In this document: positions 17,834-64,000 of the stretch, in pieces
Layout: each line of letters begins with the position of its first letter
Numbering within the stretch: position 1 is the first letter of the stretch
Source: Bdellovibrionia bacterium
GTDB taxonomy: Bacteria > Bdellovibrionota > UBA1018
Assembly (NCBI GenBank): GCA_040399745.1
Contig: JBBARP010000005.1
Coordinates: forward strand, 118,048-182,047
Length of the DNA: 64,000 nucleotides
Direction: 5' to 3'
Made by a program: the position numbers and the translations under genes
The notes under the pieces: model-generated
What the model saw: only the letters and a program-made list of their open reading frames with translations
Databases searched by the model: none
Told to the model about the DNA's origin: nothing

Positions 17834-17895
17834 GGGTGCGGAAACTAGCAAAGCCCGGACGGCCATGCTACCCAGAAGAAAGGGGAAATTCCGCC

Positions 17896-21535: not shown

Positions 21536-22477
21536 ATGAATTTGCGCCTAGATTCTGAAAACGGCGACCTGGAAACCTGCCTCTGGAGCCGCGTTCGAGT
21601 GACGGGGCCGGATGCCCGCGATTACCTTCACCGAATGACGACGGCTCAGGTGAAGCACCTGAGACCGGGTCAAATCACTTCGGGCTGCTTTCTGACGGCC
21701 CAAGGCAAGGTGCGGGCGGCCTTTTCCTTGGCCTGCACGGAAGCCAACACCTTCACTTTGGAATTGGACGCCGGCCGGGACGAGGCCTGGAAAAAGGCTC
21801 TTTTGGAGGTGATCGAGCAGTTTCACTTCGCCGAAGCCTTTGAAACCGTGGACGCAAGTTCAAGCGGGCTAAGCTGGTTCTTCCTGACTGAAAGCCCAGA
21901 AGGGGCGCAGGCAAGCCGCTTTGAGTCCTTCGGAAACCTCGAGATTTATCACCACGACTCTGGAACCTGGGGACGGCCTTGGATCAGCGTTTGGGGCCCT
22001 CGCGCAGAACGCGACGCTTGGGCCAAGACCCTGGACACGGAGTTTCGTTCAGCGAAATTTTCAGAACTGCAGGCGGGGCGCATTCAAGCCCTGGCCCCTT
22101 GGGCCGACCATGAAGTGCTCGCAGACGCCAACCCCCTGGAGATTGGCCTTCGTGCGGCCATTGCCGATAACAAGGGCTGCTACCCCGGCCAGGAAGTGAT
22201 CGAGAAGATTGTGGCCCTGGGCTCGCCCGCCCGCCGCCTGGTGCTCCTGCAAGGAGCGCCCGCCGCCTCAGCCCCGGCACCCGCGCCTGGAGCCCCGGTG
22301 CAAGATTCCGCCTCTGGCACGGAGCTGGGCCAAATCACCAGCGTCGCCCCGCTCGGCGGATCAGGCGCGGGCTGGGTCGCGCTCGCGGTGCTGCGAAAAA
22401 CTCACGCGCGCCCCGGGCAAGCGGTCCACGTCGCTGGCAGCGAGGTCGCGGTCCAAGCGGTGGCGGCGTATGAATAG
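21536..22477 (+). CDS. ygfZ: YgfZ-type folate-binding Fe-S cluster repair/tRNA-modification protein (GcvT-like fold)
   Basis: Signature KGCYPGQEVIEKI near the C-terminus and an aminomethyltransferase-like N-domain. Confidence 0.7.
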   Translation: MNLRLDSENGDLETCLWSRVRVTGPDARDYLHRMTTAQVKHLRPGQITSGCFLTAQGKVRAAFSLACTEANTFTLELDAGRDEAWKKALLEVIEQFHFAEAFETVDASSSGLSWFFLTESPEGAQASRFESFGNLEIYHHDSGTWGRPWISVWGPRAERDAWAKTLDTEFRSAKFSELQAGRIQALAPWADHEVLADANPLEIGLRAAIADNKGCYPGQEVIEKIVALGSPARRLVLLQGAPAASAPAPAPGAPVQDSASGTELGQITSVAPLGGSGAGWVALAVLRKTHARPGQAVHVAGSEVAVQAVAAYE

Positions 22478-25400
22478 GCGCGCGACCGCGCGTCACTGCG
22501 CGCAAGCGTGCGCGCTCGCGCTGGCGGTGGCGGCGGGCGCCAGTGCGCCGACCCTGGCCCGGGCCCACGGCGATGCCGCGCGCGGGGCAAGCGCCTGGAG
22601 CGAATCATCCAGCAGCGCTTCTCACTCGGACTTGGACTACCGCACTCGCCCGTGGGCCGCTCCGGCGGCGCAGAATGCGGGCGGCGCCGGCGCCATCGCG
22701 CTGGGCCCGGGCGACTCGCTCTCGCTTTCGCCGTTCTGGGAGTGGCGCACGCTGGTCAGCGATCACTTCCGAATGACGTTTCCGCAGGAACTCGAAGCCA
22801 CGGCCAGGAAGGCGGTGGATTACCTCGAGGAAGCACACCGCCTTTTGGCGCCCGCTCTTCAGTGGGAGCCGCGCTTTCGCGTGCAGGTGCTTCTAGTCGA
22901 CAACACGGATTCCGCCAATGGCATGGCCATGGCGGTTCAGCGGTTCGGGATGATTCTTTACGCCACCCCGCCCGAATCCTACTTCTCGACCTCCTACGCC
23001 GACGACTGGCTCAGGCTTCTTTGCTTTCACGAATACACGCACATTTTGAATCTGGACCCCACGCGCGGCCCCATCTATCAGGCTTGGCGGCTTTTGAACG
23101 GCGATACGTTTCTTCCTAATTCGCTCTGGGCGCCTTGGATGTTGGAAGGACTCGCCACTTTTTCGGAAACTCGCCTCACTTCTGCAGGCCGCGGCCGAAG
23201 CCCCCTTTGGCGCGCTCAAATCCGCGCAGCCGCTTTGGAAAACAAGCTCGGTCAGGATGACCACGTTTCGCTCGATCGACTGACCGGGGACGTTCCATTT
23301 TTTCCCGGGGGCGAAATCCCTTATCTTTACGGCTACGAGATGATGAACGAGCTTTCGCTTTCAGCTCGTCCCGGGGAAACCGGCATTTCTGCACTAGGTC
23401 GAGTGTCCATTCAGTCAGCCGAGCGCGTCCCGTATTTCATCAACGGAAATGCAGAAAATACGTTGGGCCGCTCCTGGACCACGGCCTGGAGTGATTGGCT
23501 GAAACGCACAAAGAGCCGCACCGAGGCTGAAGCTTCCCTACTAAAAACGGCGCCTCTCACCCGGCCCCGCGAGATCACGAAGCAAGGTTACAACGTTTCA
23601 GGACTCGCGGTTTCACCCGACGGAAAAAGCCTGCTCGTTGGTCGTAGCAGCTTGCACGAAAGAAGCGGCCTTTGGCTGATCGACCTGGAATCCGGCCGCG
23701 AGCGGCGCTTGGCAGAAAAAATCGGAGGCGCATCCCTCGCGTTTGCCGATCAAGGCCGCTTGGCACTTCACAGTAGTTTGCGCCGCCGCGGCTCAAAAGA
23801 TCTCTTCAACGAGTTTAGCGACCTCCAAGCCATCGACATCAGTACTGGACGTTCGACTTGGCTCACCGAAGGACTACGCGCCAAAGATCCCAGTCTTTCT
23901 CCCGATGGGCGCTTCGTGGTTTTCACCCTGGCCGGTGAAGAGCGCGTGAGCCTAGCCGTGGCCGAGCTTTCTCGGGACTCCGCTGGGACTCCGCGCCTTG
24001 GAAACGTGAGGCGCCTTTGGGCGCCTGAGCGCTGGGGACGCGCCTCCCAGCCTGTTTTCGATCCCACCGGTAAGCGCATTGTGTTTAGCGCTCAGGTTCC
24101 GGGCCAGCTTCAGGAAAATCTGATGGAGCTGGATTGGCATCCCGCTCTAGCAGTGTCGGAAGAGGGCGATCTACCCGCACGCACGCTTCTCAGCGACGGG
24201 TTCTTTCACCGCTATCCCACCTTCGGAAAAGACGGCGCGCTTTACTTCATCTCGGACCGAACGGGTGTGCTGAATCTGTGGCGGCTAGGCGCAGGCGATC
24301 CAAAGCCTACGCTTCAAACGAACATTCTAACGGCGCTCCAGTTTCCGGCTTTTTCTCCCGATGGCCGCCTCTTCGCATCTCACTTGGGTGCAGAAGGCTG
24401 GAATATCGCGGAAGTTCCGCTTTCGCGCATGCGCCTGGATTCCGAGCGCCTCACACTGCCCAAGCTTGAAGTGCCGCGCGAAGGAAGCAGCGAGGACAGC
24501 GTTCGAACCACTGCGGCTGCGGCCGCAACTTCTTCCAACGCACTCACCGTTCAGGATTATTCGGCGTGGCCGAGCCTCCTGCCGCGCCAGTGGGGTCCTT
24601 ACCTCACTCTTGCTGGCACAGGCCTTCAGAGCGTGGGCGCCTTTGTCTATGGGTACGACGCCGTCGATCGGCATCGGTATTTTTTTCTGGGCGATTGGAA
24701 CCGCGAGACGTCGACTGCTGAAGGTTTGGCCATATACCAAAACCGCTCTTTCGCCACGACCCTGGGTGTTCAAGCCCAGAGAAGCAGTTCGCTGGTTCTA
24801 GACTCCTCGGGCACTTGGGCCGAACGAACGGATGAACTGGATGTTTCAGCGTCGCTCCCCATTCAGTGGACCTTCAGCACTCTCACTCCTTCTCTGGAAT
24901 GGAATCGCGAACAAAACAGTTGGACGCTACTCGAAGGGGTCGATCCTGTGGGGTTCTTCTCCAACTTGCCAGACGATTCCTTCACAGCGCGCGTTCGTTT
25001 CGCGGACGGCCGAAGCTCGCGCTTGGCTATCACTACCGAAGAGGGTTTTTCGAGCTCCTTAGGCGTTCGCGCCTACGCAACCCGTGGCGGCTGGAAAGCT
25101 CAGGCAGGCCATCGGCATCGGTTTCACTTAGGTGGACACGCCGTGCTCATTCCCAGCGTTCAAGGAGTGGTCACAGATGGCGGTCGCACTGCTCTGAGCT
25201 CTGCGCGCGCGCGTATTCGCGGGCGAAACGGAACGCTGACTGATAGTTTGAGTGGTGACGCTCTCGATACGCTCATTGTGCGCGGTTACTCAGGCCAGTC
25301 TTTTTGGGCCGATTCTTTAGGCCTTGCGGCTCTCGATCTGACCTTACCCTTGGCCTATGTGTTCCGGGGCTGGAGCACAAACCCAGTCTTCTTCGATCAA

Positions 25401-25628
25401 TGGGTGGGCGGTCTGTTTGTTGAAGCGGCTCAAGCCAAGCAAGTTGCGACTCTTTCGGAAACTTATTCGTCGGTCGCACTGGCTTCTTTAGGCGCATCGA
25501 TCGAAGCGCGCACGACCTGGGGACATCACATTCCCGTACTGACCTCTTTGAACTGGAACTGGGGAACGAACGCGGCCCGAGGCGGTCAGCAGGAAGTGTT
25601 CCTGCTTCTCCGCCTCGGCGCGATTTAA
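22471..25628 (+). CDS. Large (~1050 aa) secreted multidomain protein: N-terminal HExxH region plus TolB/WD40-like beta-propeller plus a C-terminal beta-rich domain
   Basis: Signal peptide MNRRATARHCAQACALALAVAAGASA, CFHEYTHILNL (HExxH), and repeated SPDGK/SPDGR/FSPDGR propeller blades. The track ORF start at 22209 lies inside ygfZ, and the ATG at 22471 overlaps the ygfZ stop. Confidence 0.6.
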
Positions 25629-25638
25629 AACCCTTCAA

Positions 25639-28600
25639 TCAAGCCCTTCCGGACACTGACGCTTTTTTACTTCCGCGCTTTTTTTCGAGCCAAAGCTCGA
25701 AGTCGTCCAAGATGGCGATAGCAGCCGGGAACACAAACGCCGTGAGCAGGCTGCCAATGGCCAGACCCCAACCCAGCGCCAAAGCGATCGGAACAACAAA
25801 CGGATCCTTGCCGCCGATGCCGTAAGCCGTGGGCAAAAGGCCTGCAACCGTCGTGGCCGTCGTCAGGAAGATGGGACGGAAGCGAATCCCAGCCGCATCG
25901 ATGATGCTCTGAGTGCGCTCCGCGCCTTCCTTACGCCGTTGGTTCACGAAGTCGATCAGAACAATCGCGTTGTTCACGATCACGCCCGCGAGCGCGATGA
26001 TTCCCAGCATCGAGAAGAACCCAAGAGGCTTTCCGTGCAGGAAGAACGTCAAGATCACGGAAATGACCCCAAGCGGAATCGTGATCATGACCAGAAGCGG
26101 CTGCAGAAGCTTTCCAAAGGTCATGACCAGAACCAGGAAAATCCCCATGAATGCGACGATGAAAGCCCTTCCCAAGGAAGCAAAACTTTCGTTCGTGTCT
26201 TCGTCTTCGCCCCCGAAAGCCACCGTCACGCCCGGAAACTTTTGATTCATCTCGGGCAGCATTTTCTTGAGCTTGCCGTTCACTTCCAAAGCACTGGCCA
26301 CTTCCGGATTCACATCGGCTGTGACTTTGATCTGCCTTTGATTGGCTTCGTGCTGGAAAACAGCAAGTCCACGAGTGGACTCGGTTCGGCTGATGCGCGA
26401 GAGCGGCACTAGGTTTCCTCGAGCATTGGGAATTAGAATTTGCCCCAAGCTGGAAACATCTTTTCTAGCGCTTTCGTCTAATGAAACTCGAACATCCACT
26501 TCTTCCTCGAGGCCCTGGATCGAAGTAGCCACCACTCCGTCAAAGGCAGCTCGCACCGTTTGACCGACTTGCGCCACGTTCAGTCCTGCTGCGGCTGCTT
26601 CAGCAGCATCCACGCGAAGAGTCACTTCTTGCTTACCTAGCAAGTAGGAATCCTGAATGTCACTGACCCCGGGAATGGGCGCCAAGATCTTTTTCAGTTC
26701 CGCCACGACCGGCATGATCTTCTCGTAATTGCTGGCCCTGACGCTCAAGCTCACTGGTTTTCCAACCGGAGGACCGGAGTTCACTCGGTCAAAGGTCACG
26801 CGCTCTATGCCCGGAGGCGTTCCCACCTCTTTCCGAAGCGCCTCAATGATTTCCTGAGCCGTGCGTTTCCGATCCCCCTCGGGAGTCAGATAAACCGCAA
26901 CCTGAGCGTACTCGCTCCCGCGCTTCGTTCCCGGATCATTCGGGTCCTGCTGCTGAACGCCGATCGAAGTGACAAAATTGTCCAATTCGTTGGTGGGAAG
27001 GTTCGCAATGATCTTTTCAATGGGTCGCGAAAGCGCTTCGGTTTGATGAAGCGAGGCGCCTGAAGGAGCGTCCATCCGAACAAAGAACGCTTCGATTCCG
27101 TCTGACGGGAATAGAACAAAGCGCATGCCTTTTGCGGCAAGACCTAAGGAGCCAATGAAAAGGATCAATACGCCGGCTGCTAAGCGATAGCGATTCACCA
27201 AAGCTTTGGCCAATGTTCTCTTGTAAGCCGGAGTGACCGAGTGGTCCCACCAGTAAGTAATCTGACCGACCATTCGCCGCCAGCCTGAAGCTTCCTTGTG
27301 GTAGCGCTTTTCAGCGTTCACCCGAATGTAAGAAGCAATGTGACCTGGAAGGATAAAGTAGGCTTCAAACAAGCTGATCAAAAGCGCCAGAATGACGCCG
27401 GCCGGAATTTCACGAACGAATTTCCCGAAAATCCCGCTCATGAAAAGCATCGGCGCAAAGGCCAAAACGGTCGTCAAAACGGATGCGGTCACTGCAGGCC
27501 AGATTTCTTGAGTCCCCTTAATGGCGGCCTCTTCTGGGGACATGCCCTCTTCCATCAATCGTACACAGTTATCCGTGACCACGATTGCGTCGTCGACCAA
27601 CATCCCGGACACGATGATGAAGCCGATCAAGGAGACCAGGTTCAGCGAATAATCCAAGTTATAGAAAACGGCCATCGTCCCCAAAAACGCAAACGGGATC
27701 CCCAGCGACACCAGCAGCGCCACGCGGATTTCAAGGATCGCTGCCAGCATCAAGAGAACGAGCACCAAACCTAAGTACAGGTTCCCTGACAAAACCCCGA
27801 TGCGCCGAGTGATCAGCTTGGAGAAGTCATTGACGAAAGAAATGCGAAGGCGAGGATCCAAAGTCGGCTGAATCTCTGCCATCCGTTCCTTCAGCTTTTT
27901 CACCAAAGTAATGGCGTCGCCTTTTTCCTTTTTCAGCACCGTCAGGGTCACAGACGGCGCCATCTTCACACTCGAAAGAACCTTCGGCTTTTCCAGCGCC
28001 ACGCGCAGCTTGGCCACATCCTTCACGCGGATAGCTTGCCCCAGGTCATTGGCGCGAATGACGGTCTCGCCCACGTCGATGACGGAATGAAAATCCCCAA
28101 CTGTGCGAACGATTCGCTCGGGGTCGCTCACTGAAAGGCTTCTCGGCTCGATCGATCCGGCCGGGACCGAGACGTTCTGCACCTGAAGGGCGCGAATCAT
28201 TTCATCCAAGGAAATTCGGTATTGAGCCAGTTTGCGTGGATCGGCTTCAACGCGGATCTCTTCGTCTTGAAGACCGGCTGCCGCCACTTTGGAAACCCCC
28301 GAGATGGACTCAATCTCGTTCTCCAATGCCTTGGCCGCACGCCGAAGCTCAAGCTCGGGCATATCGCCCGACACCGCGACTGCGATGATGGGGGTTTGCT
28401 TCGTCTCAAGTGAGGCGACTTTCGGGTCTTCTGAACCCGTCGGCACTTTGAACAAATCGACGACGTCTTGAACGTCGGTCTTGCCGTCGTCGGCAGTCGT
28501 TTGATCCGGATCCAGCTGAATCAGGATCTCACTGTAACTATCGGTCGAGAACGAGAAGATTTTCTTCACGCCGTCGACTTCTTTCAAATCCTGCTCGAGC

Positions 28601-28800
28601 GGATTGGTGACGAGCTTTTCCACTTCCGCAGGCGAAGCGCCCGGGAAAATGGTGCTCACCGCAATGGTATCAAAGCTGACGTTCGGGAAGGTCTCGCGCC
28701 GAATCAAGAAGGTCGCTCCCAAACCCACCACCAGAATGATGACGCTGAGCAAGTCCCCGAAAAGGCGCTTACGTGCGAAAAATGCGATTAATGAATTCAT
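25639..28800 (-). CDS. RND-family (AcrB/HAE1-like) inner membrane efflux transporter
   Basis: 1053 aa with 12 TM segments and two large periplasmic loops. The N-terminus is conserved (MNSLIAFFARKRLFGDLLSVIILVVG). Confidence 0.85.
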   Translation of the reverse strand: MNSLIAFFARKRLFGDLLSVIILVVGLGATFLIRRETFPNVSFDTIAVSTIFPGASPAEVEKLVTNPLEQDLKEVDGVKKIFSFSTDSYSEILIQLDPDQTTADDGKTDVQDVVDLFKVPTGSEDPKVASLETKQTPIIAVAVSGDMPELELRRAAKALENEIESISGVSKVAAAGLQDEEIRVEADPRKLAQYRISLDEMIRALQVQNVSVPAGSIEPRSLSVSDPERIVRTVGDFHSVIDVGETVIRANDLGQAIRVKDVAKLRVALEKPKVLSSVKMAPSVTLTVLKKEKGDAITLVKKLKERMAEIQPTLDPRLRISFVNDFSKLITRRIGVLSGNLYLGLVLVLLMLAAILEIRVALLVSLGIPFAFLGTMAVFYNLDYSLNLVSLIGFIIVSGMLVDDAIVVTDNCVRLMEEGMSPEEAAIKGTQEIWPAVTASVLTTVLAFAPMLFMSGIFGKFVREIPAGVILALLISLFEAYFILPGHIASYIRVNAEKRYHKEASGWRRMVGQITYWWDHSVTPAYKRTLAKALVNRYRLAAGVLILFIGSLGLAAKGMRFVLFPSDGIEAFFVRMDAPSGASLHQTEALSRPIEKIIANLPTNELDNFVTSIGVQQQDPNDPGTKRGSEYAQVAVYLTPEGDRKRTAQEIIEALRKEVGTPPGIERVTFDRVNSGPPVGKPVSLSVRASNYEKIMPVVAELKKILAPIPGVSDIQDSYLLGKQEVTLRVDAAEAAAAGLNVAQVGQTVRAAFDGVVATSIQGLEEEVDVRVSLDESARKDVSSLGQILIPNARGNLVPLSRISRTESTRGLAVFQHEANQRQIKVTADVNPEVASALEVNGKLKKMLPEMNQKFPGVTVAFGGEDEDTNESFASLGRAFIVAFMGIFLVLVMTFGKLLQPLLVMITIPLGVISVILTFFLHGKPLGFFSMLGIIALAGVIVNNAIVLIDFVNQRRKEGAERTQSIIDAAGIRFRPIFLTTATTVAGLLPTAYGIGGKDPFVVPIALALGWGLAIGSLLTAFVFPAAIAILDDFELWLEKKRGSKKASVSGRA

Positions 28801-53812: not shown

Positions 53813-54490
53813 ATGGTCTCTCAACTATTTTTGGGAATGTCTCTGGTCGGCGCGGAGTGGGTCCTATGGTTCTTGGTAGCCACATCTATTGTTTCGGTCG
53901 CAGTCATCGTCGAAAGGGTGCGTTTTGTACGCGACGCCACTCGCGGTTTAGTCGATTTTCGACAGGCCCTTCGATCTGAAGCCGAAAAAGGACGCTGGGA
54001 AGAGGCAAAGACACTCGCTCTCGGGCGACTGCAAGCTACTGACTCAAAAGGTCAATCCCCTCACAGCCAAGCGCCCGACCTCGAAACGGGTCTGGCTTTC
54101 GCGCTCTTGAGCCGAAAAACCCAAGGCCTGAGCCTGGACCCCGGAGTTTTGAACGAACTTTCGCGCGATCAGGTCGTTCGGGCGCGCCTTCGCTGGGAAC
54201 ACAACCTTTCCACTTTGGCGACCATCGGCTCGAACGCCCCCTTTGTCGGACTGTTTGGGACGGTTTTAGGCATCATTCAGGCCTTCCACGACCTTTCCAC
54301 TCAAGGGGCCGCAGGCTCGAGTGCCCAGGTCACCGCAGGGATGGCCGAGGCCCTCGTGGCAACCGCCGTGGGCATTTTTGTCGCGATCCCGGCTGTGGTC
54401 GCTTTTAACCTTTTGACCCGCCGGGTGAAGCGGGCCGTTGCCGAAGCAGAGGCCCTGAAGAGCTTCCTGGTCGGAAAGCTGGCGGGCTAA
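53813..54490 (+). CDS. exbB: MotA/TolQ/ExbB-family proton channel
   Basis: 3 TM segments with the conserved GLFGTVLGII and AEALVATAVGI motifs. Confidence 0.75.
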   Translation: MVSQLFLGMSLVGAEWVLWFLVATSIVSVAVIVERVRFVRDATRGLVDFRQALRSEAEKGRWEEAKTLALGRLQATDSKGQSPHSQAPDLETGLAFALLSRKTQGLSLDPGVLNELSRDQVVRARLRWEHNLSTLATIGSNAPFVGLFGTVLGIIQAFHDLSTQGAAGSSAQVTAGMAEALVATAVGIFVAIPAVVAFNLLTRRVKRAVAEAEALKSFLVGKLAG

Positions 54491-54494
54491 GCGC

Positions 54495-55001
54495 GTGGCG
54501 GGCGATTTCGGCGGCTCAGACGAGGAACTGTTCTCAGGAATCAACGTCACGCCACTCGTGGACGTCGTTCTAGTCCTTTTGGTGATTTTCTTGATGACCG
54601 CTCCGGTCATCTACCAGTCCGCTTTGAAAGTGCAGCTCCCGAAAGCCCTCACCGGCGAAAACCAGGAGAAGTCTCCGCTTCGATTTACTTTATCCCGCGA
54701 CGGACAACTGGCCTGGGGCGAGGAAGCTGTTTCCTGGGAAGAGTTACCTGCTCGATTGAAAGCGCTCGGCCCCGCAGCAAGCCAGGAATCTGCCACTCTT
54801 TCGGCCGATCAAGCCACTCCGCACGGAACGGTGGTTCGCTTGATGGACTTGCTTCGCCAGGCAGGAATTACGCGTTTCGGCCTGAACGTCGATGGAGCGC
54901 CCGGAGTCGCATCGCCCACTTCACCTGGCCTCGGCGCAAAAGCCACTCAGACAAAGGCTGAGCCAGTTTCCGCCGAAAAAAGGTCCACGCCAGGTAACTA
55001 G
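54495..55001 (+). CDS. exbD: ExbD/TolR-family biopolymer transport protein
   Basis: Single TM INVTPLVDVVLVLLVIFLMTAP and a periplasmic domain with a Pro/Ala-rich tail. Confidence 0.75.
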   Translation: MAGDFGGSDEELFSGINVTPLVDVVLVLLVIFLMTAPVIYQSALKVQLPKALTGENQEKSPLRFTLSRDGQLAWGEEAVSWEELPARLKALGPAASQESATLSADQATPHGTVVRLMDLLRQAGITRFGLNVDGAPGVASPTSPGLGAKATQTKAEPVSAEKRSTPGN

Positions 55002-55044: not shown

Positions 55045-56979
55045 CTAGTTCCACCCCAGCGCCAAGACGCCCCGGTAAACCAGGAAGGCAAACGCGTAGG
55101 CCAGCGCTGTTAGATAAAGCAGCATGAAAGCCGGCCAACGCCAGCTGTTCGTCTCGCGTTTGGCCACGGCCAGCGTGGACAAGCACTGGAGCGCCACCAC
55201 GTACCAAGCAAGAAGACTCGCTGCTGTCGCGAGCGACCACTGACCCCTCAGCACCGGGCCCAGCTCGGCCTGCACCACTTCTTCATCTGCGCCTTCGCGA
55301 GCCTCGACCGAGTAAACCGTCGCAAGAGCACTGACCATCACTTCGCGAGCCGCAAAACCAGGAATCAAAGCCACCCCGACGCGCCAATCAAAGCCAATGG
55401 GGCGAATCAGGGGCTCGATCGCATGACCGATTTTTCCAGCGTAGCTGTGGTCAATAGGCGCTCCGACTGAGCCTTCCGGAGCTTTGGGATAACTCGACAA
55501 GAACCAAACCAGGACCGTGAGCGCGAGGATGACCGTCCCTGCGCGACGAATGAAAACTTTAGCTCGTTCGAGAAGGCCAAAGCCCAAGTTCATGAAGCTT
55601 GGCCACTTGTAAGTGGGAAGCTCCAAAATCAAGGACGGGCGTGGCCCTTGAAGTACGGTCCGGCGAAACACTGCCGCCAAAAGAAGAGCTAAGAACAGAC
55701 CCGAGGCATACAGCCCCAGCATCACCGCTGCTTGTAAGCTCAGCGGGCCGACCGAGCGGTCGGCGGGAATGAAAGCGGCGATTAGGAGCGTATAAACCGG
55801 AAGGCGCGCTGAACACGTGGTCAGCGGTGCTACCAAAATGGTGACCAACCGGTCGCGACGATTCTCGATCGTTCGGGTGGCCATGATTCCAGGAATCGCG
55901 CAGGCATAGGATGAAAGGAGCGGAATGAAGGATCGTCCGTTCAAGCCCACTTTGCCCATCAAGCGATCCATCAGGAACGCTGCGCGGGCCATGTACCCGG
56001 AGTCTTCCAGGGCCAAGATGAACGCAAAAAGAAGAAGGATCTGCGGCAGGAACACGAGAACGCCGCCCACGCCAGCTAGCACGCCGTCGACTAAGAGGCT
56101 TTTCAGAGGCCCATCCGTCATCAAACTTCCCACGAAACCAGAAACGTCACCGACTCGCGCTTCAATCCAGTCGGCAGGGACCGAAGCCCAAGTGAAGAGG
56201 GCCTGAAACATCAGGCTGACCACGGCCAGGAAAATCAAGCTTCCCCAAATCGGATGAAGCACCAATCGATCCAAGCGATCGGTCCACGGAGTCGGCGCAA
56301 TGGCGCGCTTCACACACTTCGAGAGAATGCGATCGACTTCACCAAAGCGAGCGCGCACCTGCTCGGCTGAAGACTTCTCCCAGCTTTGAGCCGTACGCGA
56401 AGGCGGAGCTCGGTCCACCCCCTCCAAAGCCGACTCGAGCTGCGCAAGCAAGTCGCGCGTGCCCTGGCGCGCAGTCGCCACGGTTGCAACCACTGGCACG
56501 CCGAGTTCTTGAGAAAGGATACCGAGGTCGAGTTCCTGGCCCCGCGCACGAGCCAGATCCATCATGTTCAGCGCCAGAACCATCGGAATGCCCAAGTTCT
56601 TGAGTTCAAGAACCAAGGCAAGGCCGCGTTCCAAATTCGTGGCGTCAGCTACCGCCACCAAAAGATGAGGCTGAAGCTCAAGGGCGACCCGCCCAAGGAC
56701 CACATCGCGCGCGACTTCTTCGTCCAGTGTGCGGGCGTCCAAACTGTAAGTTCCCGGAAGGTCGAGCACGCGAATATCGCGCCCCCGACTGCCTCGCACG
56801 AGACCTTCCTTCCGCTCGACCGTCACGCCCGAGTAGTTCCCGACTTTTTGGCGTGAGCCAGTGAGCGCGTTAAAGATCGCGGTTTTTCCACAGTTCGGGC
56901 TCCCCACGAGGGCCATCAGCGAGGCTTCCACGGAGCCTTGAACCGACGAAGTAGAATGACAATCGACTGAAGTTTTCAC
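55045..56979 (-). CDS. feoB: Ferrous iron transporter FeoB (G-protein domain plus permease)
   Basis: GTPase G1 GSPNCGKT, G3 DLPG, G4 NMMD. The membrane domain carries gate motifs. Confidence 0.9.
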   Translation of the reverse strand: MKTSVDCHSTSSVQGSVEASLMALVGSPNCGKTAIFNALTGSRQKVGNYSGVTVERKEGLVRGSRGRDIRVLDLPGTYSLDARTLDEEVARDVVLGRVALELQPHLLVAVADATNLERGLALVLELKNLGIPMVLALNMMDLARARGQELDLGILSQELGVPVVATVATARQGTRDLLAQLESALEGVDRAPPSRTAQSWEKSSAEQVRARFGEVDRILSKCVKRAIAPTPWTDRLDRLVLHPIWGSLIFLAVVSLMFQALFTWASVPADWIEARVGDVSGFVGSLMTDGPLKSLLVDGVLAGVGGVLVFLPQILLLFAFILALEDSGYMARAAFLMDRLMGKVGLNGRSFIPLLSSYACAIPGIMATRTIENRRDRLVTILVAPLTTCSARLPVYTLLIAAFIPADRSVGPLSLQAAVMLGLYASGLFLALLLAAVFRRTVLQGPRPSLILELPTYKWPSFMNLGFGLLERAKVFIRRAGTVILALTVLVWFLSSYPKAPEGSVGAPIDHSYAGKIGHAIEPLIRPIGFDWRVGVALIPGFAAREVMVSALATVYSVEAREGADEEVVQAELGPVLRGQWSLATAASLLAWYVVALQCLSTLAVAKRETNSWRWPAFMLLYLTALAYAFAFLVYRGVLALGWN

Positions 56980-57269
56980 TCCGGAATCTCCCCGGTAATC
57001 AGAACGCGAATCTCGGAAGCATCAATCCGGCGAATGCCGATCAATGCGCCTCGAACGCGAACGGCAATGGGATCGCCCCCGAATGGAGCCTCGTGCATGA
57101 CTTCCACTACCGAGCCTTCAATCAAGCCCATCTCGAGCATTCGGCGAGCGGAATCCGCATCTTTGAGTGCGACTGACTCGATCACCCCACGCTGCCCCAC
57201 TGGAAGCGCGGACAGGGGAATCAGGGAATGCGACGAAGAACTGAACACGAAAAAATCCACTTCGTTCAT
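56976..57269 (-). CDS. feoA: FeoA
   Basis: SH3-like FeoA domain LPVGQRGVIESV...GLIEGSVVEVM...IAVRVRGALIGIRR. It overlaps the feoB start. The 5' end is uncertain: the track ORF extends to 57329. Confidence 0.75.
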   Translation of the reverse strand: MNEVDFFVFSSSSHSLIPLSALPVGQRGVIESVALKDADSARRMLEMGLIEGSVVEVMHEAPFGGDPIAVRVRGALIGIRRIDASEIRVLITGEIPE

Positions 57270-57289
57270 CTTGAGAATGATTCTCAAGA
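57269..57289. promoter_or_regulatory. Fur-box-like near-perfect 19-bp palindrome in the feoA / repeat-protein-array divergent region
   Basis: cttgagaatGattctcaag. The core TGAGAATGATTCTCA matches the 7-1-7 Fur consensus TGATAATGATTATCA at 13/15 positions. Confidence 0.5.
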
Positions 57290-57391: not shown

Positions 57392-58570
57392 GTGACGTTA
57401 CGTTCGATTTGCCAAGGCTTCGTCGCCGGCTTCATCCTTCAACTGCTCGTTCAGACGCCGGCGCTCGCCCAGGAGCCGTCGGCTGATCCTTCCGTCCGGA
57501 TCGCCGAAATCCGCGCTCAAGCACTCGAAAGTATCCGCCTCTACTCGGAAAACGGCGGCCCGGGGCCTCGGAGCCCATACTTACCCCAGTCCCGAACCGA
57601 CGAAGAAATGTATCACTATGGGCGGCTTCGCCGAATTTCGCTCGAGCTCCATCGTTTGGACCCCAAACGCTTTGCCCAGGCAAGATCGCTCGAAAATTTG
57701 GCCCGCCTGCTCGTGGATGAACCCGTCGAAGGGCCCGCTTTGGCAAAACTACTCAGGACGGCGCGCTCCGCGCCGGACTTTGAAGAGCGAGTTTACGAAT
57801 GGCGGAAAGTCGTGGACCCCAATCTGGACGAGTCACAGACGCCTAGTAATCGCGAGCTCACCCGGATCCGCTCCGACGTCCTGAGAATCCTGGAAAAATA
57901 CAAAGCCGTCGGTCGCCCTAACCCAAAAAGCACCCAATCCGAAGAAGCATCGGACTCGGACCACCTAGAACAACTCAGCAGACGCCTCTTAAAACTCGAC
58001 CCAAAAGCGTACGGACACGAAGCTGGATTCTCGCGACTTGCGTTGATCTTCGACGACATCGATCCCGAAGTCGCAACTCTGCTTCGAAACACGCGAAGCT
58101 CGAAAACCTTCCTAGAACTGGTCAAAAAACGCACGGGCCAGGATCCCTTACTCGCGAGTAAGCAAAAGGTGCTGGAAGACCTTCGAGAAGAGCTCATCCT
58201 GATCTACTCCGAGTACGCAAGAACTGGAGGCCCTAGTTTTTATCCCAAGGACCCGAAGTCGCGCGAAGGCATCTACGAGATCAAAGCTGCGCGCAGGATT
58301 TCAGAGATCTCCTTACGAGTCAGCGAGATCGACCCAGAGCGCTTTGGAGAAAAAGCCTCAAAAGAAGCGCTTGCGCGCCTAATCGAGGAGGTCCCATTTT
58401 ACGGTACGCCTCTGGCTCGCCTCCTGCGAACGCACCGGTTACACTCCACTTACAAAAGATACGCGCGCGACTGGGTTCGAACGCTGAGAAATTCCTCGCC
58501 GCGGCGATCGGGCCAGTCTGCCGAGGTGGATTGCATTAACCTGAGACTTCGACTCGAAAGCGAACCCTAA
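57392..58570 (+). CDS. Secreted modular repeat protein, paralogue 1 (3 copies of a ~110-aa helical module)
   Basis: Signal peptide FILQLLVQTPALA. Modules carry the recurring [IL]xIYxxY-x-TGGP...RRLxxISxRLxELDPxRF...NLARLIE..PxEGxxLAxLLRTxR...W pattern. Confidence 0.7.
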   Translation: MTLRSICQGFVAGFILQLLVQTPALAQEPSADPSVRIAEIRAQALESIRLYSENGGPGPRSPYLPQSRTDEEMYHYGRLRRISLELHRLDPKRFAQARSLENLARLLVDEPVEGPALAKLLRTARSAPDFEERVYEWRKVVDPNLDESQTPSNRELTRIRSDVLRILEKYKAVGRPNPKSTQSEEASDSDHLEQLSRRLLKLDPKAYGHEAGFSRLALIFDDIDPEVATLLRNTRSSKTFLELVKKRTGQDPLLASKQKVLEDLREELILIYSEYARTGGPSFYPKDPKSREGIYEIKAARRISEISLRVSEIDPERFGEKASKEALARLIEEVPFYGTPLARLLRTHRLHSTYKRYARDWVRTLRNSSPRRSGQSAEVDCINLRLRLESEP

Positions 58571-58628
58571 TCTTGCTCTGACTTCGTAACGCCTGAGTGC
58601 CAGCCCCCTGACACTTCAATCCGCAGTT

Positions 58629-60926
58629 ATGTCGGAGCTGATTTCAGCCGATTCGAAAAGAGTGAAACTTCGTCGTTTATTGCACCTCACTTGGATTCTT
58701 CACTTTGCGACGCTTGGGCTCTGGATTTCACCCACTCTGGCTCAGGACGAGGCTTTTGAAACCTACCGAAAAGAAGTTCTCGCCATCACGTCCAAGTACC
58801 CCGATCACGCCATTCCCAGGCGCAACGCAAGAATCTCAGAAAAACAGGATGCCGTTCGGCTCGATGCCATCGCCCATAAACTCTCGAGGCTGGACTCAAA
58901 AAAATACCCAATAAAAATCTCTCAGCACCAACGTCTCTCGGTCCTCATGAAGGACGCGTCCCCTGTTCTCTCGCTCCTTTTTGCCAGCCACAGTAAACAA
59001 CCTCATTACAACTCTCTGATTGAAGAGTGGATGGGGCGACCCACCGAAGCGGGACGAGAAAACCGGGAGAAAATTGAAGGCGGCAGAACTGAGGCGATTC
59101 AGATTCTGGAAAAATACGCTCCAAATGGCGGCCCGAGACTCACTCGCGGCACGGATGAACGAGAAGCTGCCGTAAAACTCGTCAATATTGGCCAACTGCT
59201 TCACCGCCTGAATCCCTTGAGATACCCAGAAAACAAAGACTTCCTCAAAAACGTTCACACGGGTGTTCGTGAAACTCGTACCGACTCAGCAGGACAACTG
59301 GAGAAGCTCCTCGCTGAACAAGCGGCTGAAGCGTTGGAACGGGAAAAAGTTCGTGCAGGCGAAGTGGATCCTCAATTGGACTTGGACCGATCCCTTTTGG
59401 AAAGGCGACAAAAGATCGAAGAAACTCTGCAAGCCTATCGCATCCAAGCTCATGGAATCTTCGTAAAATATGAAGCCACCGGCGGACCCAGGTTAAAGGC
59501 TCGCCTAGGCGAGGACGAACCCTCACGAGTCGAGATTCTCGACGCCGACTTGCTTCAACGAATCACCTTAAAACTTCAAGAAGTGGATCCATCCCATTAT
59601 GAAAGAACGAGCGGTCGAAGAAATCTAGCGAGACTCTTCAGTACCATTCCTGGAGAAGGCAAAGCGCTCGAAGACCTGCTCGAGCTTCGTGTGAATTCTC
59701 CCGATTTTCCCGCGCGTCTCGCCGCCTGGCGAAAGATCAGAGGCGAAATCGCAGTCACTCAAGCACCGAACGAACTCGTTCACCTGGAAACCCTACGTCA
59801 AGAAGTGATCCGGATTCTCGACAACTACCGCACCATCGGCAGGCCGCGAGCAACCCCTTCTGACCGGGATCAAGATTCGGCTGCAAACCGCCTCGTTCGC
59901 CTGGGGAGAAACCTCGCCAAGCATTTCCCAAATCAATTTGGAACCCTGGAGCCTCGCTCCGCGCTAGCTCAGCTGATCGAGGCCACCGATCCCCACGGCG
60001 CTGAAATCCTACGCCTCGAGGTGCGCTCGCCTGAGTTCAAAGAGGCGGTGCGCTTAAGAAATGGAGTGGCGCCCCTCTCTGCTCAAGCCGACAAAAGAAT
60101 CCTGGCCTACCAAGAGGAAGTGCTCGCCATTTATGAGGCCTATGCCAGCCAGGGCGGTCCCAGTGTTAGTCCGGCAGATCCAGAATCTCCTGAAGGGAAA
60201 AGAGAAATTTCAGCCGCAAGGCGCTTGAATGTAATCAGCCTGGGTGTCGGGGGCTTAGATCCCACCCGATTTCTTCCCACCGCGCAAAAAGAAAACCTCG
60301 CAAGGCTCGTCGAAGACGCTCAGGGCGGCGGCAAAGAACTGGCTCAGGTGATTCGATCGAGCCGCCAGACCGACGATTTTAAGCGCTCTATCCGGGATTG
60401 GAAAACGGCTCAAAGGCGCGCCGCAATGAATGTCAGTAGGCCGCAAGCTCCGGTGAAGGCAAACGAACCGACTCAAGCTGCGCAGAGTGATGAACCACCC
60501 GCGGCGTCGCCCGAAAAATCGTACCCCGACGCGGTTCGCGCTTTCTTAGATCGCTACAAGTCTGTCGACGCCGTTTTGAACGACAGCCTCAGGGTTTATC
60601 GAGAATTTCGAGACACCGGGGGTCCGATCGAATGGAATCCCCCCGCCACGCCTGGGCAAAAGCGAGAGCGATCAGCCGCAAGAATGCTCGTGCTCCTGAA
60701 TCATCGCCTTCACGAACTCGATCCTGCGGGGTTCTCCGACCCATCGAAGCTTGGAAACTTGGCTCGCGCCATCGATCAAATTCCCGGCGAAGGCCCAGCT
60801 CTAGCTGAACTTATGAGGACTGATCGATCCAAAGACCCGGCACTTCATGAAAGGCGACTGAAAATTTGGATCGCCGTTCTTGAAGAAGAAAAATTCATCA
60901 ACTGCCTCACGAACGCGACTCGCTAA
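58629..60926 (+). CDS. Secreted modular repeat protein, paralogue 2 (~6-7 modules)
   Basis: Signal peptide. Reiterated modules, e.g. ILEKYAPNGGPR, FVKYEATGGPR, IYEAYASQGGPS, YREFRDTGGPIEW. The C-terminal capping module ends W[IL]AV...FINCL. Confidence 0.7.
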   Translation: MSELISADSKRVKLRRLLHLTWILHFATLGLWISPTLAQDEAFETYRKEVLAITSKYPDHAIPRRNARISEKQDAVRLDAIAHKLSRLDSKKYPIKISQHQRLSVLMKDASPVLSLLFASHSKQPHYNSLIEEWMGRPTEAGRENREKIEGGRTEAIQILEKYAPNGGPRLTRGTDEREAAVKLVNIGQLLHRLNPLRYPENKDFLKNVHTGVRETRTDSAGQLEKLLAEQAAEALEREKVRAGEVDPQLDLDRSLLERRQKIEETLQAYRIQAHGIFVKYEATGGPRLKARLGEDEPSRVEILDADLLQRITLKLQEVDPSHYERTSGRRNLARLFSTIPGEGKALEDLLELRVNSPDFPARLAAWRKIRGEIAVTQAPNELVHLETLRQEVIRILDNYRTIGRPRATPSDRDQDSAANRLVRLGRNLAKHFPNQFGTLEPRSALAQLIEATDPHGAEILRLEVRSPEFKEAVRLRNGVAPLSAQADKRILAYQEEVLAIYEAYASQGGPSVSPADPESPEGKREISAARRLNVISLGVGGLDPTRFLPTAQKENLARLVEDAQGGGKELAQVIRSSRQTDDFKRSIRDWKTAQRRAAMNVSRPQAPVKANEPTQAAQSDEPPAASPEKSYPDAVRAFLDRYKSVDAVLNDSLRVYREFRDTGGPIEWNPPATPGQKRERSAARMLVLLNHRLHELDPAGFSDPSKLGNLARAIDQIPGEGPALAELMRTDRSKDPALHERRLKIWIAVLEEEKFINCLTNATR

Positions 60927-61000
60927 AGCGAGCGCCACCCGCATGACGCCCCGCGAGTTTTTGGGTCATGTCGGCAATGCACTCTTCCGATTAAACCAGT

Positions 61001-62611
61001 GTGAAACTCCATCATCGACACCTTCTCTTCTTGATTCTTTTTCTGGGCCAACTCTGGGCAGTTCAGACTCAAGCCCAGGGACCCAGCTTGAGGAAGGACG
61101 ATTGGCAATCCGTTCGGGATGAGGAAAAGAAATTCCTAAAGAAAGAGAGGCAACTTCTAGAGCTGAGACAGAAAGCCCTCGGCCTCATTCACCAGTATGA
61201 AGCTACTGGAGGTCCGCGCCAATACGCCAATAAAGGGGAGACTGAGCCCAGTGCGGAGGAAAAGAAGGCCTCCTGGGCTCTACGAAATATTTCCAGCCGA
61301 CTTCACAGCATCGATCCAGCTCAGTTCGAGAATACTTCCGACCGAAAAAATTTGGCGCGCCTTCTTCGCCATATTCCCGGTGAGGGTCCAAGTCTCGAAG
61401 CTCTATTTCTTCTGAGTCGCGCCGCTCCTGGTTTTTCTGCTGCTGTGTCCGATTGGCAGATGGCCAGAAAAAATCCCCCTACCCCAGTCGTTCACCAAAA
61501 CGATTCGTTCGATCCGATTCTTCAGGAAGCGCTCCAGATTCTCAAATCCTATCCTCTTCTCGGAAGACCGCGACTCGATTCCCCCACCAGAAAGGAAGTT
61601 TCAGACGCGAAACGCTTGGAAGTCCTGGGCCAAGGTATCGCCGAAAGGGACCCCAATATTTTTCGCAATCTCAGCCCGCTTAAAGCTCTGTCGCTCGCTA
61701 TGAAAGAAGTCGATCCAATTTCGGCAGACCTGCTGCGCCTGGACGTTCATTCAGAATATTTTAAATCCATCCTACGTGAGCGAAACCAAGTCAAACCTCT
61801 GATGCCCGAGGCGGAACACAAGATTCTCGAATATCAAAAAGAGGTCATCGCCATTTTTGAAACCTACTCCGATACCGGCGGACCAAGAGCTACCTCGACT
61901 CTCAAGAGCGAAGCCGATCGGGCTCGGGAATTTAAAGCCTACGTTCGCCTGACTGAGATCTCCAAACGACTCGGCGGACTTGACCCAAAGAGGTTTCTGC
62001 CGCGAACTCAGCGCGAAAACCTGGCCCGCCTAGTCGAGGCCTTACCGAGTGGAGGAGCTGAGCTCGCAGAAATCATTCGCAGTGGCCGAGGCCGCAAAAA
62101 AATCGAAAAAAAAATGAATGCTTGGCGGGCTGCTCGCGCGAAGCCTCAAGAGGACCTTCCCGAGGCGCCCGCGATGGCACCGAGCCGCCCGACTCCAGAG
62201 CGTCTCAGGAACTTCTTAGACCAATACACTTCGGTAAAATCGATCCTGAGGGACTCAGTAAAAATCATGCTCGAATACCAGGCAACGGGCGGACCCATCG
62301 AATGGGTGAATCCTCAAACGGCCAAACAGAAGCATGAACGATCTGCAGCCCGTATTTTGCAACACTTGAACGATCGCCTTCACGAGCTCGATCCAAAACT
62401 CTTCTCGTTTTCTGGAAAGTTCGGAAACCTTGCGAAAGCGATTGAAACCCTTCCCGGCCAAGGTACTGAATTGGCCGATCTTCTGCGAACGGATCGCGTG
62501 GCCGAGCCCGACCATTTCGAGCGAAAGCGCCAGACGTGGCTGGCGGTTTTTAAAAGTGATTGGTTCATCGATTGCCTCTTAAATGGCGGTCGGAAGGGCG
62601 GCACCCGGTGA
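61001..62611 (+). CDS. Secreted modular repeat protein, paralogue 3 (~5 modules)
   Basis: Signal peptide LFLILFLGQLWAVQTQA. Modules LIHQYEATGGPR, IFETYSDTGGPR, MLEYQATGGPIEW. The capping module is nearly identical to that of paralogue 2. Confidence 0.7.
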   Translation: MKLHHRHLLFLILFLGQLWAVQTQAQGPSLRKDDWQSVRDEEKKFLKKERQLLELRQKALGLIHQYEATGGPRQYANKGETEPSAEEKKASWALRNISSRLHSIDPAQFENTSDRKNLARLLRHIPGEGPSLEALFLLSRAAPGFSAAVSDWQMARKNPPTPVVHQNDSFDPILQEALQILKSYPLLGRPRLDSPTRKEVSDAKRLEVLGQGIAERDPNIFRNLSPLKALSLAMKEVDPISADLLRLDVHSEYFKSILRERNQVKPLMPEAEHKILEYQKEVIAIFETYSDTGGPRATSTLKSEADRAREFKAYVRLTEISKRLGGLDPKRFLPRTQRENLARLVEALPSGGAELAEIIRSGRGRKKIEKKMNAWRAARAKPQEDLPEAPAMAPSRPTPERLRNFLDQYTSVKSILRDSVKIMLEYQATGGPIEWVNPQTAKQKHERSAARILQHLNDRLHELDPKLFSFSGKFGNLAKAIETLPGQGTELADLLRTDRVAEPDHFERKRQTWLAVFKSDWFIDCLLNGGRKGGTR

Positions 62612-63573
62612 AAACACATCGGGCGAAATCAAGAGCCCCTTACCGCTTCCCCGTTCGGCAGCATCGTCGATTCCGTGTGCGAACGTTACTGCTGATTCTT
62701 CTCGGGGCTCAGTGGGCAGTTGCCTACTGGGTTCATGCTCAGGACTTCGAGCACAGCGTGAAGTATCAGGAACTCAAGAAGGAAGCCTTGGCCATCTATT
62801 CCCAGTACAAAGAGACCGGTGGCCCTGTTCGAAACCTTCACCCACGGAATCAAGCTGACATTTATGAAACTGCTGCGGCAGCGCGCTTGGGTGGCATCAG
62901 CACTTACTTAGGACGTAAGGCTCCCGAGCGCTTTCTGAAAGGGGCCGATCGCGAGAACATCGCGCGCCTCATTGAAGATGTGGCAGGCGAAGGCCAGGCG
63001 CTTGCTCTTCTCATTCGGACCCGAAGAAACGGGGAGCACTTCCAAGAAAGACTGAACGCCTGGCTTGGAGCACGCGAGGGGAAAGTCGTGGTCTTAAGCC
63101 CCGAGGCCGCAACCCTAGCCGTGAAGAGCGAACACCCCACGGGCGGTCCGCCCGAGCGACACAAGTGGATCCCGAGAAAGGCCACCGAAGCCGACATTCT
63201 TGAGGCCACCCTCAAGATCTACTCGGATTACTCGGAAACGGGCGGCCCCCGGTACTTTGTCGGAAGCGCTGCCAGTCTGGACGAAAAGTCCCTGGAAGAG
63301 CGCCGAGCTGGCGCCATCCTGAACCAGATGAACCACAAGCTCAGCCAGCTCGATCCGCTGCGATTTGAAGAAAACCACGGACGAGAAAACCTAGCGCTCC
63401 TGCTCGAGATTGCTCCCGGCGACGGCCCTGCCCTGGCCGCGCTGATTCGAACCCGTCGCCAGATGACCCCTGCGCTTCATGCAGAGAGGCTCGTAGCTTG
63501 GCAGCAGGCGCTCGCGGAGCGGAAGGCTCTCGATTGCATGCTTTCTCTGCCGGGAAAAACTCTAGAACAGTGA
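62608..63573 (+). CDS. Secreted modular repeat protein, paralogue 4 (3 modules)
   Basis: A GTG at 62608 overlaps the previous stop (GTGA). An alternative GTG at ~62676 gives the signal RTLLLILLGAQWAVAYWVHA. Modules IYSQYKETGGP, IYSDYSETGGPR. Confidence 0.6.
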   Translation: MKTHRAKSRAPYRFPVRQHRRFRVRTLLLILLGAQWAVAYWVHAQDFEHSVKYQELKKEALAIYSQYKETGGPVRNLHPRNQADIYETAAAARLGGISTYLGRKAPERFLKGADRENIARLIEDVAGEGQALALLIRTRRNGEHFQERLNAWLGAREGKVVVLSPEAATLAVKSEHPTGGPPERHKWIPRKATEADILEATLKIYSDYSETGGPRYFVGSAASLDEKSLEERRAGAILNQMNHKLSQLDPLRFEENHGRENLALLLEIAPGDGPALAALIRTRRQMTPALHAERLVAWQQALAERKALDCMLSLPGKTLEQ

Positions 63574-63588
63574 TATAAACCGGGCCGT

Positions 63589-64000
63589 TGTGAACCGGTC
63601 CAAGCTTTCCCTCTTCATCCTCGGATCAGCCGCCGTTGCGGCTGCCGCACCCCTGCCTGCAAGGGCGGACTGGGATGAGCCCAATTCGGCTCGGATTCAA
63701 GCCCTGCGACTTGAAGCGCTCACGATTCTAGAAGCTTACTCCTATCAAGGCCGACCCTTTCTCACTTCTTACAATCTAAGCGAGCGTGAAGACGCTTTGA
63801 GGCTTGCAGCGTTGGGTAGGGCGCTCGAGGCAGAGTTTCCACAAAGGTTTGAGAGAAATCGTCCTTCCGAAAACCTGGCGCGTCTTTTAGAGAAAAAGTC
63901 GCCTATTTTAGCTGCCCAACTTCGATCGAAGTCTCCCAATCAATCGATGCGCCGGAGCATCGATTTTCGGATTGAGGAACTCCGCAGCGAAGCGCTCTCC
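63589..64000 (+). CDS. Secreted modular repeat protein, paralogue 5 (3' partial, runs off the window)
   Basis: GTG start. Signal peptide KLSLFILGSAAVAAAAPLPARA, then the module ILEAYSYQGRPF...LRLAALGRALEAEFPQRF...NLARLLEKKSPILAAQLRSKS. Confidence 0.55.

Follow-up and report, generated by a model that had tools for sequence, protein, structure and literature searches.

The 64,000-nucleotide stretch of a Bdellovibrionia bacterium genome analyzed here (the window; contig JBBARP010000005.1, positions 118,048 to 182,047) ends in five consecutive genes on the same strand, designated P1 to P5, which occupy window positions 57392-64000. The fifth is partial within the window according to the list of open reading frames (ORFs). 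The initial annotation, made from the sequence alone, described these genes as a tandem array of paralogous secreted proteins assembled from a reiterated helical module. ORF calls, BLASTP comparisons, hidden Markov model (HMM) searches, and a signal-peptide scan confirm this description. The sizes proposed there (392, 765, 536, and about 320 aa plus a partial fifth gene) agree with the measured values of 392, 765, 536, and 321 aa plus the partial P5 (Table 1). In protein database searches, P1 proved identical to entry P0011 and P2 to entry P0007.

The intergenic gaps measure 58, 74, and 16 bp, and the P3/P4 junction consists of a 4-bp GTGA overlap, which had been noticed at the outset and recurs in the gene calls of contig L093. 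This contig represents the same strain (3000 of 3000 overlapping bases identical, positions 61001-64000), and its gene calls match the P3-P5 boundaries of the window. The ORF list opens the P4 reading frame at 62560 (62560-63573); the true start is most likely the GTG at 62608, which overlaps the TGA stop of P3 and gives the 321-aa product. For P2, an alternative GTG start is possible at residue 12. Judged by spacing and the single 4-bp overlap, the tandem array is probably a co-transcribed, operon-like unit. A terminator-like hairpin at 62528-62545 lies inside the P3 coding sequence and was treated as a chance occurrence, with 7 such sites found against 11.8 expected. A separate signal peptide and stop codon mark each gene, and the boundaries recur in independent assemblies; the ORFs are not frameshifted pieces of one gene. 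Further paralogues lie beyond the window end. In L093, P5 is completed as a 391-aa protein with three modules and the C-terminal end LGDCMASTLEDGLTP. About 2 kb past it comes a 303-aa polytopic membrane protein and, after that, the sixth member of the family, with 445 aa. Five genes of the array lie in the window; this strain has six or more in all, and sister strains have eight.

The repeating unit was delimited with an HMM iterated from one seed segment, which detected 16 modules in the window at independent per-module E-values of 1e-22 to 1e-34. Three of these belong to P1, six to P2, four to P3, two to P4, and one to the visible part of P5 (three in the full-length protein). The range is two to six per gene, which replaces the earlier estimate of three to about seven. 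All-versus-all BLASTP aligns the array proteins at 28-43% identity in several registers, a pattern that indicates internal repeats. Modules are about 100 aa long and occur as two alternating subtypes, a long form marked by TGGP...PGEG (about 98 aa) and a short form marked by GRP...DP (about 88 aa). The skeleton proposed earlier, namely [IL]x[IL]YxxY, TGGPR, RLxxISxRLxELDPxRF, NLARLxE..PGEG.ALAxLLRTxR, and F...W, is reproduced by the module alignment. Conserved columns of the module are core and turn residues (I16, Y20, G24, P26, L47, L54, P59, L71, A72, and L85) together with E40. Near-invariant polar residues are limited to Y20 and E40, and Y20 is replaced by F or R in some modules. In line with the first reading of the sequence, no conserved metal-ligand set of His, Cys, Met, or Asp/Glu was seen in the module alignment, and its conserved columns carry no enzyme signature. 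The mature proteins are mildly basic and arginine-rich (pI 8.0-9.7; Arg 9-13%).

The terminal modules required some revision. P2, P3, and P4 had been assigned a shared GGPIEW cap, near-identical among the three and distinguished by a lone cysteine. The GGPIEW cap is shared by P2 and P3 only (52% identical), whereas that of P4 is 32-38% identical to those two, and caps that are 32-52% identical are not near-identical. The cysteine is present in all three but is not limited to them, since P1 and P5 have it as well. The last module of P2-P5 is preceded by a proline-rich linker of 37-57 aa, the longest of each protein (57 aa in P2).

Searches with whole proteins and with the 51 single modules returned no match in Pfam (inspected up to E = 1), NCBIfam, PADLOC, or PHROGs. 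Nothing better than E = 0.01 appeared in PADLOC or PHROGs, which gives no assignment to anti-phage defence or phage proteins. The module profile matched PDB sequences at chance level only, for example the GAT domain of GGA1 at E = 0.036. The assertion that the module belongs to no recognized family therefore stands for all five of these searches.

The structure of the module was predicted with high confidence. An AlphaFold2 model of a single module, built from 51 non-redundant modules, reaches a pLDDT of 94.2 and a pTM of 0.86 and contains five helices. An antiparallel hairpin, formed by H1 (residues 2-19), a Y-x-x-T-G-G-P loop, and H2 (residues 35-57), leads into the LDPxRF turn. Two 9-residue helices follow, H3 with NLARLxE and H4 with ALAxLLR, before a final F...W helix. 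With this model, the best Foldseek hit in PDB had an E-value of 2.4 and a TM score of 0.39, and BFVD gave no match; the five-helix domain is possibly a new fold. For mature P4, the model was built on the aligned two-module C-terminal segments of 17 members of the family. Both modules have a pLDDT of about 85-95, the linker falls below 50, and the pTM is 0.47. Low linker pLDDT combined with this pTM points to independent domains arranged as beads on a string rather than to a solenoid. The predicted architecture is one of independently folding five-helix domains joined by disordered linkers. In the cap module of the P4 model, the final helix is longer and terminates at the cysteine. Modeled at pLDDT 94 yet lacking a relative in sequence or among solved structures, the domain would qualify as a new Pfam family and may represent a new fold.

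Export signals were assessed with a heuristic scan for signal peptides and transmembrane (TM) segments rather than with a dedicated predictor. All five N-termini fit the pattern, with a basic n-region, a hydrophobic core, and small residues at -3/-1, as had been proposed for each gene. The same scan saw no other TM-like or hydrophobic segment in P1-P5. A lipobox is absent from all five proteins, and no cleavage region contains a cysteine; Cys7 of P1 belongs to the n-region, and its context, RSIC, does not form a lipobox. The RR pairs in the n-regions of P2 and P4 do not fit the Tat motif S/T-R-R-x-F-L-K by eye. These signal-peptide-like N-termini suggest Sec-type export with processing by signal peptidase I.

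The mature protein of every complete family member contains a single cysteine, located 5-13 residues from the C-terminus; the divergent paralogues P0014, P0015, and P0016 are no exception. The surrounding motif is hydrophobic-x-[D/E/N]-C-hydrophobic, with the variants FINCL, FIDCL, LDCM, GDCM, FDCL, LECL, IECV, and VDCI, and the residue forms an invariant column (C266) of family alignment A4. The 5-13 residues past it are mostly polar and form no hydrophobic segment. C-terminal sorting signals of the LPXTG/sortase, PEP-CTERM/exosortase, GlyGly-CTERM/rhombosortase, and MYXO-CTERM types were ruled out, as no TM helix follows the cysteine. The window also encodes a fusion of VKOR with DsbA/thioredoxin (17719-19062, plus strand), a periplasmic disulfide-forming system, so periplasmic thiol oxidation would be available. 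From this pattern we infer that the lone cysteine may form an intermolecular disulfide.

Table 1. Coordinates of the array genes, the adjacent feoAB region, and the zincin-like genes of the island. Positions refer to the window unless a locus is named; a slash marks the predicted cleavage site.
Feature	Position	Strand	Product and remarks	Predicted cleavage	Lone cysteine
P1	57392..58570	+	392 aa; 3 modules at aa 40-137 (long), 159-246 (short), 264-361 (long)	ALA/QE (aa 1-26)	Cys381, nt 58532-58534, EVDCI
P2	58629..60926	+	765 aa; 6 modules at aa 46-134, 152-243, 270-367, 389-476, 494-591, 649-747	TLA/QD (to aa 38)	Cys759, nt 60903-60905, FINCL
P3	61001..62611	+	536 aa; 4 modules at aa 55-152, 173-260, 278-375, 415-513	TQA/QG (aa 1-25)	Cys525, nt 62573-62575, FIDCL
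P4	62608..63573	+	321 aa, GTG start; 2 modules at aa 55-151, 196-297	VHA/QD (to aa 44)	Cys310, nt 63535-63537, LDCM
P5	63590..64000	+	GTG start; initial 137 codons of a 391-aa protein; one short-type module in the window	ARA/DW	
Palindrome CTTGAGAATGATTCTCAAG	57270..57288		Perfect 9-1-9; abuts upstream side of feoA, 104 bp upstream of P1		
feoA	56976..57269	-	Pfam on identical L001 genes; start not conserved in L082, true start may lie further inside		
feoB	55045..56979	-	Pfam on identical L001 genes; divergent from array; like feoA, genomic context outside the family		
Zincin-like paralogues (three, about 990-1050 aa)	L085:11349-14330	-			
	L085:16654-19803	+			
	L085:19883->	+			
	L093:7269-8258	-	Set seen in part		

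The family is confined to very few genomes. A word-indexed protein search found 10 members among 5.8 billion proteins. When 1.84 billion cluster representatives were searched with the module profile, the family amounted to 8 clusters (50% identity). Scanning with the module alignment yielded 6 loci in 241 million metagenome records and no match among the GTDB species-representative genomes scanned, and tblastn against phage and plasmid collections was likewise negative. All traceable samples come from lakes, namely the Rimov reservoir and Lac de l'Ouillette (PMC10244341). Phyletic distribution, the check suggested with the initial annotation, is thus very narrow and comprises one small uncultivated freshwater lineage. 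Its general importance is accordingly uncertain, since it is limited to a handful of closely related uncultivated genomes.

The nearest FeoB relatives are found in L002, an unclassified metagenome-assembled genome (MAG; 64% identity), and then in an Oligoflexia MAG (54%). L002 is syntenic along the feoAB-exbDB-kamA-lipoprotein side (KamA 82% and FeoB 64% identical) and has ordinary metabolic genes at the array position. Among 80 FeoB loci from GTDB representatives, module matches occurred only in L001, the window's own strain. The absence of the array from L002 and the other FeoB loci indicates that it was acquired or expanded specifically in this lineage, at a synteny break. The 64-kb window is free of rRNA and tRNA genes.

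Within the lineage, the array genes evolve under purifying selection. The ratio of nonsynonymous to synonymous substitution rates (dN/dS) is 0.32 for P2 (against L082), 0.22-0.24 for P3, and 0.15-0.28 for P4, which places the array at 0.15-0.32 compared with 0.03 for FeoB. P3 is the most divergent gene between strains. It shares 73-74% aa identity with its counterparts at L082:10001-11926 and L085:659-2257, at a dS of about 0.72, whereas the flanking P2 and P4 share 92-94% at a dS of 0.12-0.25 and FeoB shares 99%. Positive selection on P3 was rejected, as 50-codon windows range from 0.08 to 0.45 in dN/dS and none exceeds the latter value. Its excess divergence together with the high dS suggests an old or imported (horizontally replaced) allele.

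Gene and module content turns over between strains that are otherwise near-identical (FeoB 99% identical). The P3 orthologues P0001-P0004 contain four, five, or six modules, P5 is missing in L089, and P1 is absent in the sister strains L082-84, where its place is taken by an unrelated ORF for an 82-aa membrane protein, predicted to have two hydrophobic helices (L082:7374-7622, plus strand). The mechanism of ongoing duplication and gene conversion that was first proposed finds no support. Paralogous modules are 14-52% identical, and blastn detects no nucleotide similarity between paralogues; gene conversion and recent module amplification were rejected on this basis. Modules are nevertheless collinear among genes, with modules 1-3 of P1 corresponding to modules 3-5 of P2 and to modules 1-3 of P3. 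Old, collinear modules indicate that whole multi-module blocks were duplicated long ago. Variation of the surrounding island between strains with 99% identical FeoB implies that bacterioplankton of lakes gain and lose accessory "dark matter" rapidly.

Taken together, these features lead us to a tentative functional proposal, in which the array proteins are non-enzymatic, multivalent binders of the cell envelope or surface that are tethered or dimerised through the C-terminal cysteine. The flexible chain of beads would present repeated domains to a repetitive or polymeric target, which would then be bound by avidity. Through an intermolecular disulfide, the cysteine could join two chains by their tails or fasten a chain to a partner. 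Bead chains, a proline-rich spacer, and an invariant single C-terminal cysteine would together predict disulfide tethering in a diderm periplasm. The family would serve interactions with other cells or surfaces, such as prey, a host, a competitor, or a particle, rather than iron uptake.

Several observations weigh against this proposal. Multivalent binding is deduced from the modeled architecture, no outer-membrane secretion route is visible, and the proteins could be located in the periplasm only. The lone cysteine could instead be a modification site or stay reduced. Shine-Dalgarno-like sequences are weak in the array, and no recognizable promoter could be placed for it. A structural relative with known function may exist beyond PDB and BFVD. 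A conserved, divergently placed Fur-like operator also makes an iron-related role possible.

The array proteins can be compared with several better-known protein families. Staphylococcal protein A and the GA/albumin-binding modules are tandem three-helix-bundle binding domains on a tether. They offer a functional analogy, as they share independent helical domains in two to six copies, flexible linkers, a proline-rich spacer, and a C-terminal attachment element, a layout that suits binding by avidity. A sequence or fold relation is lacking, since the domain described here has five helices and about 100 aa. The host of the array is also a diderm, as indicated by AcrB, TolC-like, and ExbBD genes in the window, and its proteins have only a lone cysteine, with neither LPXTG nor another sorting signal that includes a TM helix. 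The Hcp proteins of Helicobacter form a secreted paralogue family of Sel1-like repeats, in which each repeat has a disulfide pair and the repeats stack into a solenoid. Both families are lineage-restricted expansions of all-helical repeat proteins that are exported through Sec, vary in repeat number, lack an enzymatic motif, and evolve fast. The array proteins differ in having no Sel1 match, one cysteine per whole protein at the C-terminus, and separate domains. Spectrin repeats (PF00435), three-helix bundles of about 106 aa, resemble the module in unit length, all-alpha content, and tandem arrangement. They differ in that neither Pfam nor PDB gave a match, the module has five helices instead of three, and disordered linkers replace a continuous helix. 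The protein family is new and its fold possibly so, while Hcp and tethered tandem helical modules provide precedents for lineage-restricted, fast-turnover, exported helical arrays.

An interaction role becomes probable because the array belongs to an island that also encodes zincin-like proteins. This island extends over at least 25 kb and consists almost wholly of proteins without a known family. Downstream of the array, its order is the 445-aa family member, a 993-aa protein on the minus strand, two further family members of 319 and 373 aa, which were found in the sister-strain island, and proteins of 1049 and 1025 aa. Three paralogues of about 990-1050 aa (Table 1) share a signal-peptide-like N-terminus, a central hydrophobic TM-like block, and an invariant KHExxHLxR motif. 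H612, E613, and H616 are invariant, and E654, about 40 residues later, is a candidate third ligand, which gives the set a gluzincin-like look. A search of 5.8 billion proteins gave only seven relatives of this set, all from the same lineage. The island proteins of 993, 1049, 303, 281, 119, and 82 aa matched no family and no PDB entry, and the zincin-like set also lacks PADLOC and PHROG matches. The 303-aa protein (L085:9006-9917 and L093:4926-5837, plus strand) belongs to no known family and always lies directly upstream of the 445-aa member, whose N-terminus resembles a membrane anchor.

In this setting, the family members could act as accessory partners of the giant zincin-like proteins, as chaperones, inhibitors, immunity factors, or adaptors within a predation, toxin, or competition island. 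The two families are interleaved in every strain where the region was read and are confined to the same lineage, gene content is variable, and among named relatives the closest FeoB belongs to an Oligoflexia MAG. The invariant HExxH residues with their candidate third ligand would suit such a scheme. However, at least 10 kb separates the five window genes, which are organized like an operon of their own, from the nearest HExxH gene. The counts are unpaired, with eight family members against three HExxH proteins, and the latter have no family or structure match, their protease nature being presumed. We therefore regard a dedicated partnership of this kind as rather unlikely.

In the proposal of multivalent binders, the array is part of a lineage-specific island that also encodes the three giant zincin-like proteins with Sec signals. 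A bolder version, which is speculative and would be surprising if fully correct, holds that the module is a new fold and the island a new system for envelope or cell-cell interaction in a possibly predatory, Oligoflexia-like lineage. Disulfide-tethered chains would then operate with giant membrane-inserting zincin proteins, and iron gating through a shared Fur operator may apply.

Iron enters the discussion through the region upstream of P1. The initial annotation placed the array divergently from feoAB across a Fur-box-like palindrome, and this arrangement was verified. The palindrome is perfect and unique within the window, and its core TGAGAATgATTCTCA agrees at 12 of 14 positions with TGATAATnATTATCA, which we take to be the 7-1-7 Fur-box consensus. 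The palindrome and the next 45 bp or so are 100% conserved in L082 and L084, while the sequence nearer P1 diverges. A relaxed 7-1-7 motif, TGAnAATnATTnTCA (window 57272-57286), occurs just upstream of feoA/feoB in three unrelated loci (L013:326-340, L047:1307-1321, and L064:9718-9732), which belong to Asticcacaulis, a Deltaproteobacteria MAG, and a Gammaproteobacteria MAG, as a set. Because the same motif precedes feoA/feoB in unrelated bacteria, the palindrome is most simply, and most likely, the feoAB operator. Shared divergent iron control of the array is possible at this distance from P1. If the palindrome primarily serves feoAB, iron control of the array may or may not follow.

As a side observation, an exbB-exbD pair at 53813-55001 (plus strand) converges on feoB and has no adjacent tonB. 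The order feoAB-exbDB-kamA-like radical SAM-small lipoprotein is kept in the distant relative L002.

The proteins might accordingly be accessories of iron acquisition, Fur-regulated in the periplasm and capturing Fe(II) or an iron chelate for transfer to FeoAB. This view draws on the divergent arrangement across the perfect Fur-box-like palindrome, on its full conservation in the sister strain, and on the presence of exbB-exbD on the far side of feoB. Yet a conserved ligand set (His, Cys, Met, or Asp/Glu) is absent from the module, and feoAB alone would explain a palindrome type that precedes these genes in unrelated bacteria lacking the family. L002, the nearest syntenic relative, retains feoAB-exbBD-kamA with unrelated metabolic genes instead of the array. 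P1, the gene nearest feoA, is dispensable in L082-84, and further members of the family sit at a distance of 10-16 kb, surrounded by genes unrelated to iron. An iron-handling function is consequently improbable.

A relationship to tetratricopeptide repeats (TPRs) was suggested by profile searches. TPR units comprise 34-42 residues and build a right-handed superhelix; TPR_10 and TPR_12 are the kinesin-light-chain type with 42-residue repeats. Against 1.84 billion cluster representatives, the HMMER module profile retrieved 8 true family clusters (E <= 1e-41) and five weak multi-repeat matches outside the family, with E-values of 2.5e-7 to 9e-4 summed over many repeats. Three of these five were read and are TPR_10/12-like repeat proteins, apparently cytoplasmic NTPase-TPR proteins. 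Their units ERLAxxDPxRFEPDLAxSLNNLA align with module positions of about 42-86. In hhalign, the same units match the module segment RLxxLDPxRF..NLARLxE at 88% probability over 45 columns (module 42-86), with the remaining 55 or so residues unaligned. HMM-HMM and Foldseek comparisons with a single module, the approach recommended at the outset, yielded only this TPR-like stretch and the poor PDB hit described above. The local resemblance appears real and may reflect distant ancestry or helix-turn-helix convergence. The similar stretch comprises the last part of helix 2, then the DPxRF turn, and finally helices 3 and 4, which carry NLAxxL, and both groups are all-alpha and tandemly repeated.

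On another reading of the same evidence, the modules would be highly diverged repeats of the TPR type that mediate protein-protein interactions, with the proteins serving as scaffolds or assembly factors in the periplasm. Of the only non-family matches of the profile among 1.84 billion proteins, the three that were read are TPR_10/12-like, and hhalign concurs over 45 columns. However, TPR and Sel1 Pfam models matched 0 of 51 modules at E-values up to 1, and neither the PDB profile search nor Foldseek returned a TPR structure. The unit differs in its length of about 100 aa, its hairpin of 18- and 23-residue helices with a TGGP loop, and its export. It is modeled as a closed five-helix domain with 9-residue H3 and H4 helices, and disordered linkers between domains would not permit a continuous TPR superhelix. 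Since the resemblance covers less than half of the module and no TPR model or structure matches, the family was not filed under TPR, and a TPR-type scaffold role is more doubtful still than one in iron handling. A separate observation concerns P0018, a 5012-aa protein with at least ten tandem 84-aa repeats at residues 3050-3880 or so (EEAAEQARQESLDKILDYADTDGTSEAPGV...NLERINEALAEADPEAV), whose resemblance to the N-terminal two-thirds of the module is weak; it could stem from convergence or mark a very distant relative.

That the genes are not functional at all, as chance ORFs, pseudogenized fragments of one gene, or an assembly artefact, is hardly credible: the weak Shine-Dalgarno-like sequences and a region known from MAG and metagenome data only are outweighed by gene boundaries that recur in independent assemblies from different lakes, dN/dS values of 0.15-0.32, a highly confident fold prediction, and an own signal peptide per gene.

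Elsewhere in the window, genes with no evident link to the array encode an AcrB-type RND pump (25639-28800, minus strand), a 1139-aa PD40 beta-propeller protein (22209-25628, plus strand), and a TolC-like OEP (12623-13999, plus strand). The TolC-like gene is followed by three unannotated ORFs (13741-16890), and the group may represent an efflux set.

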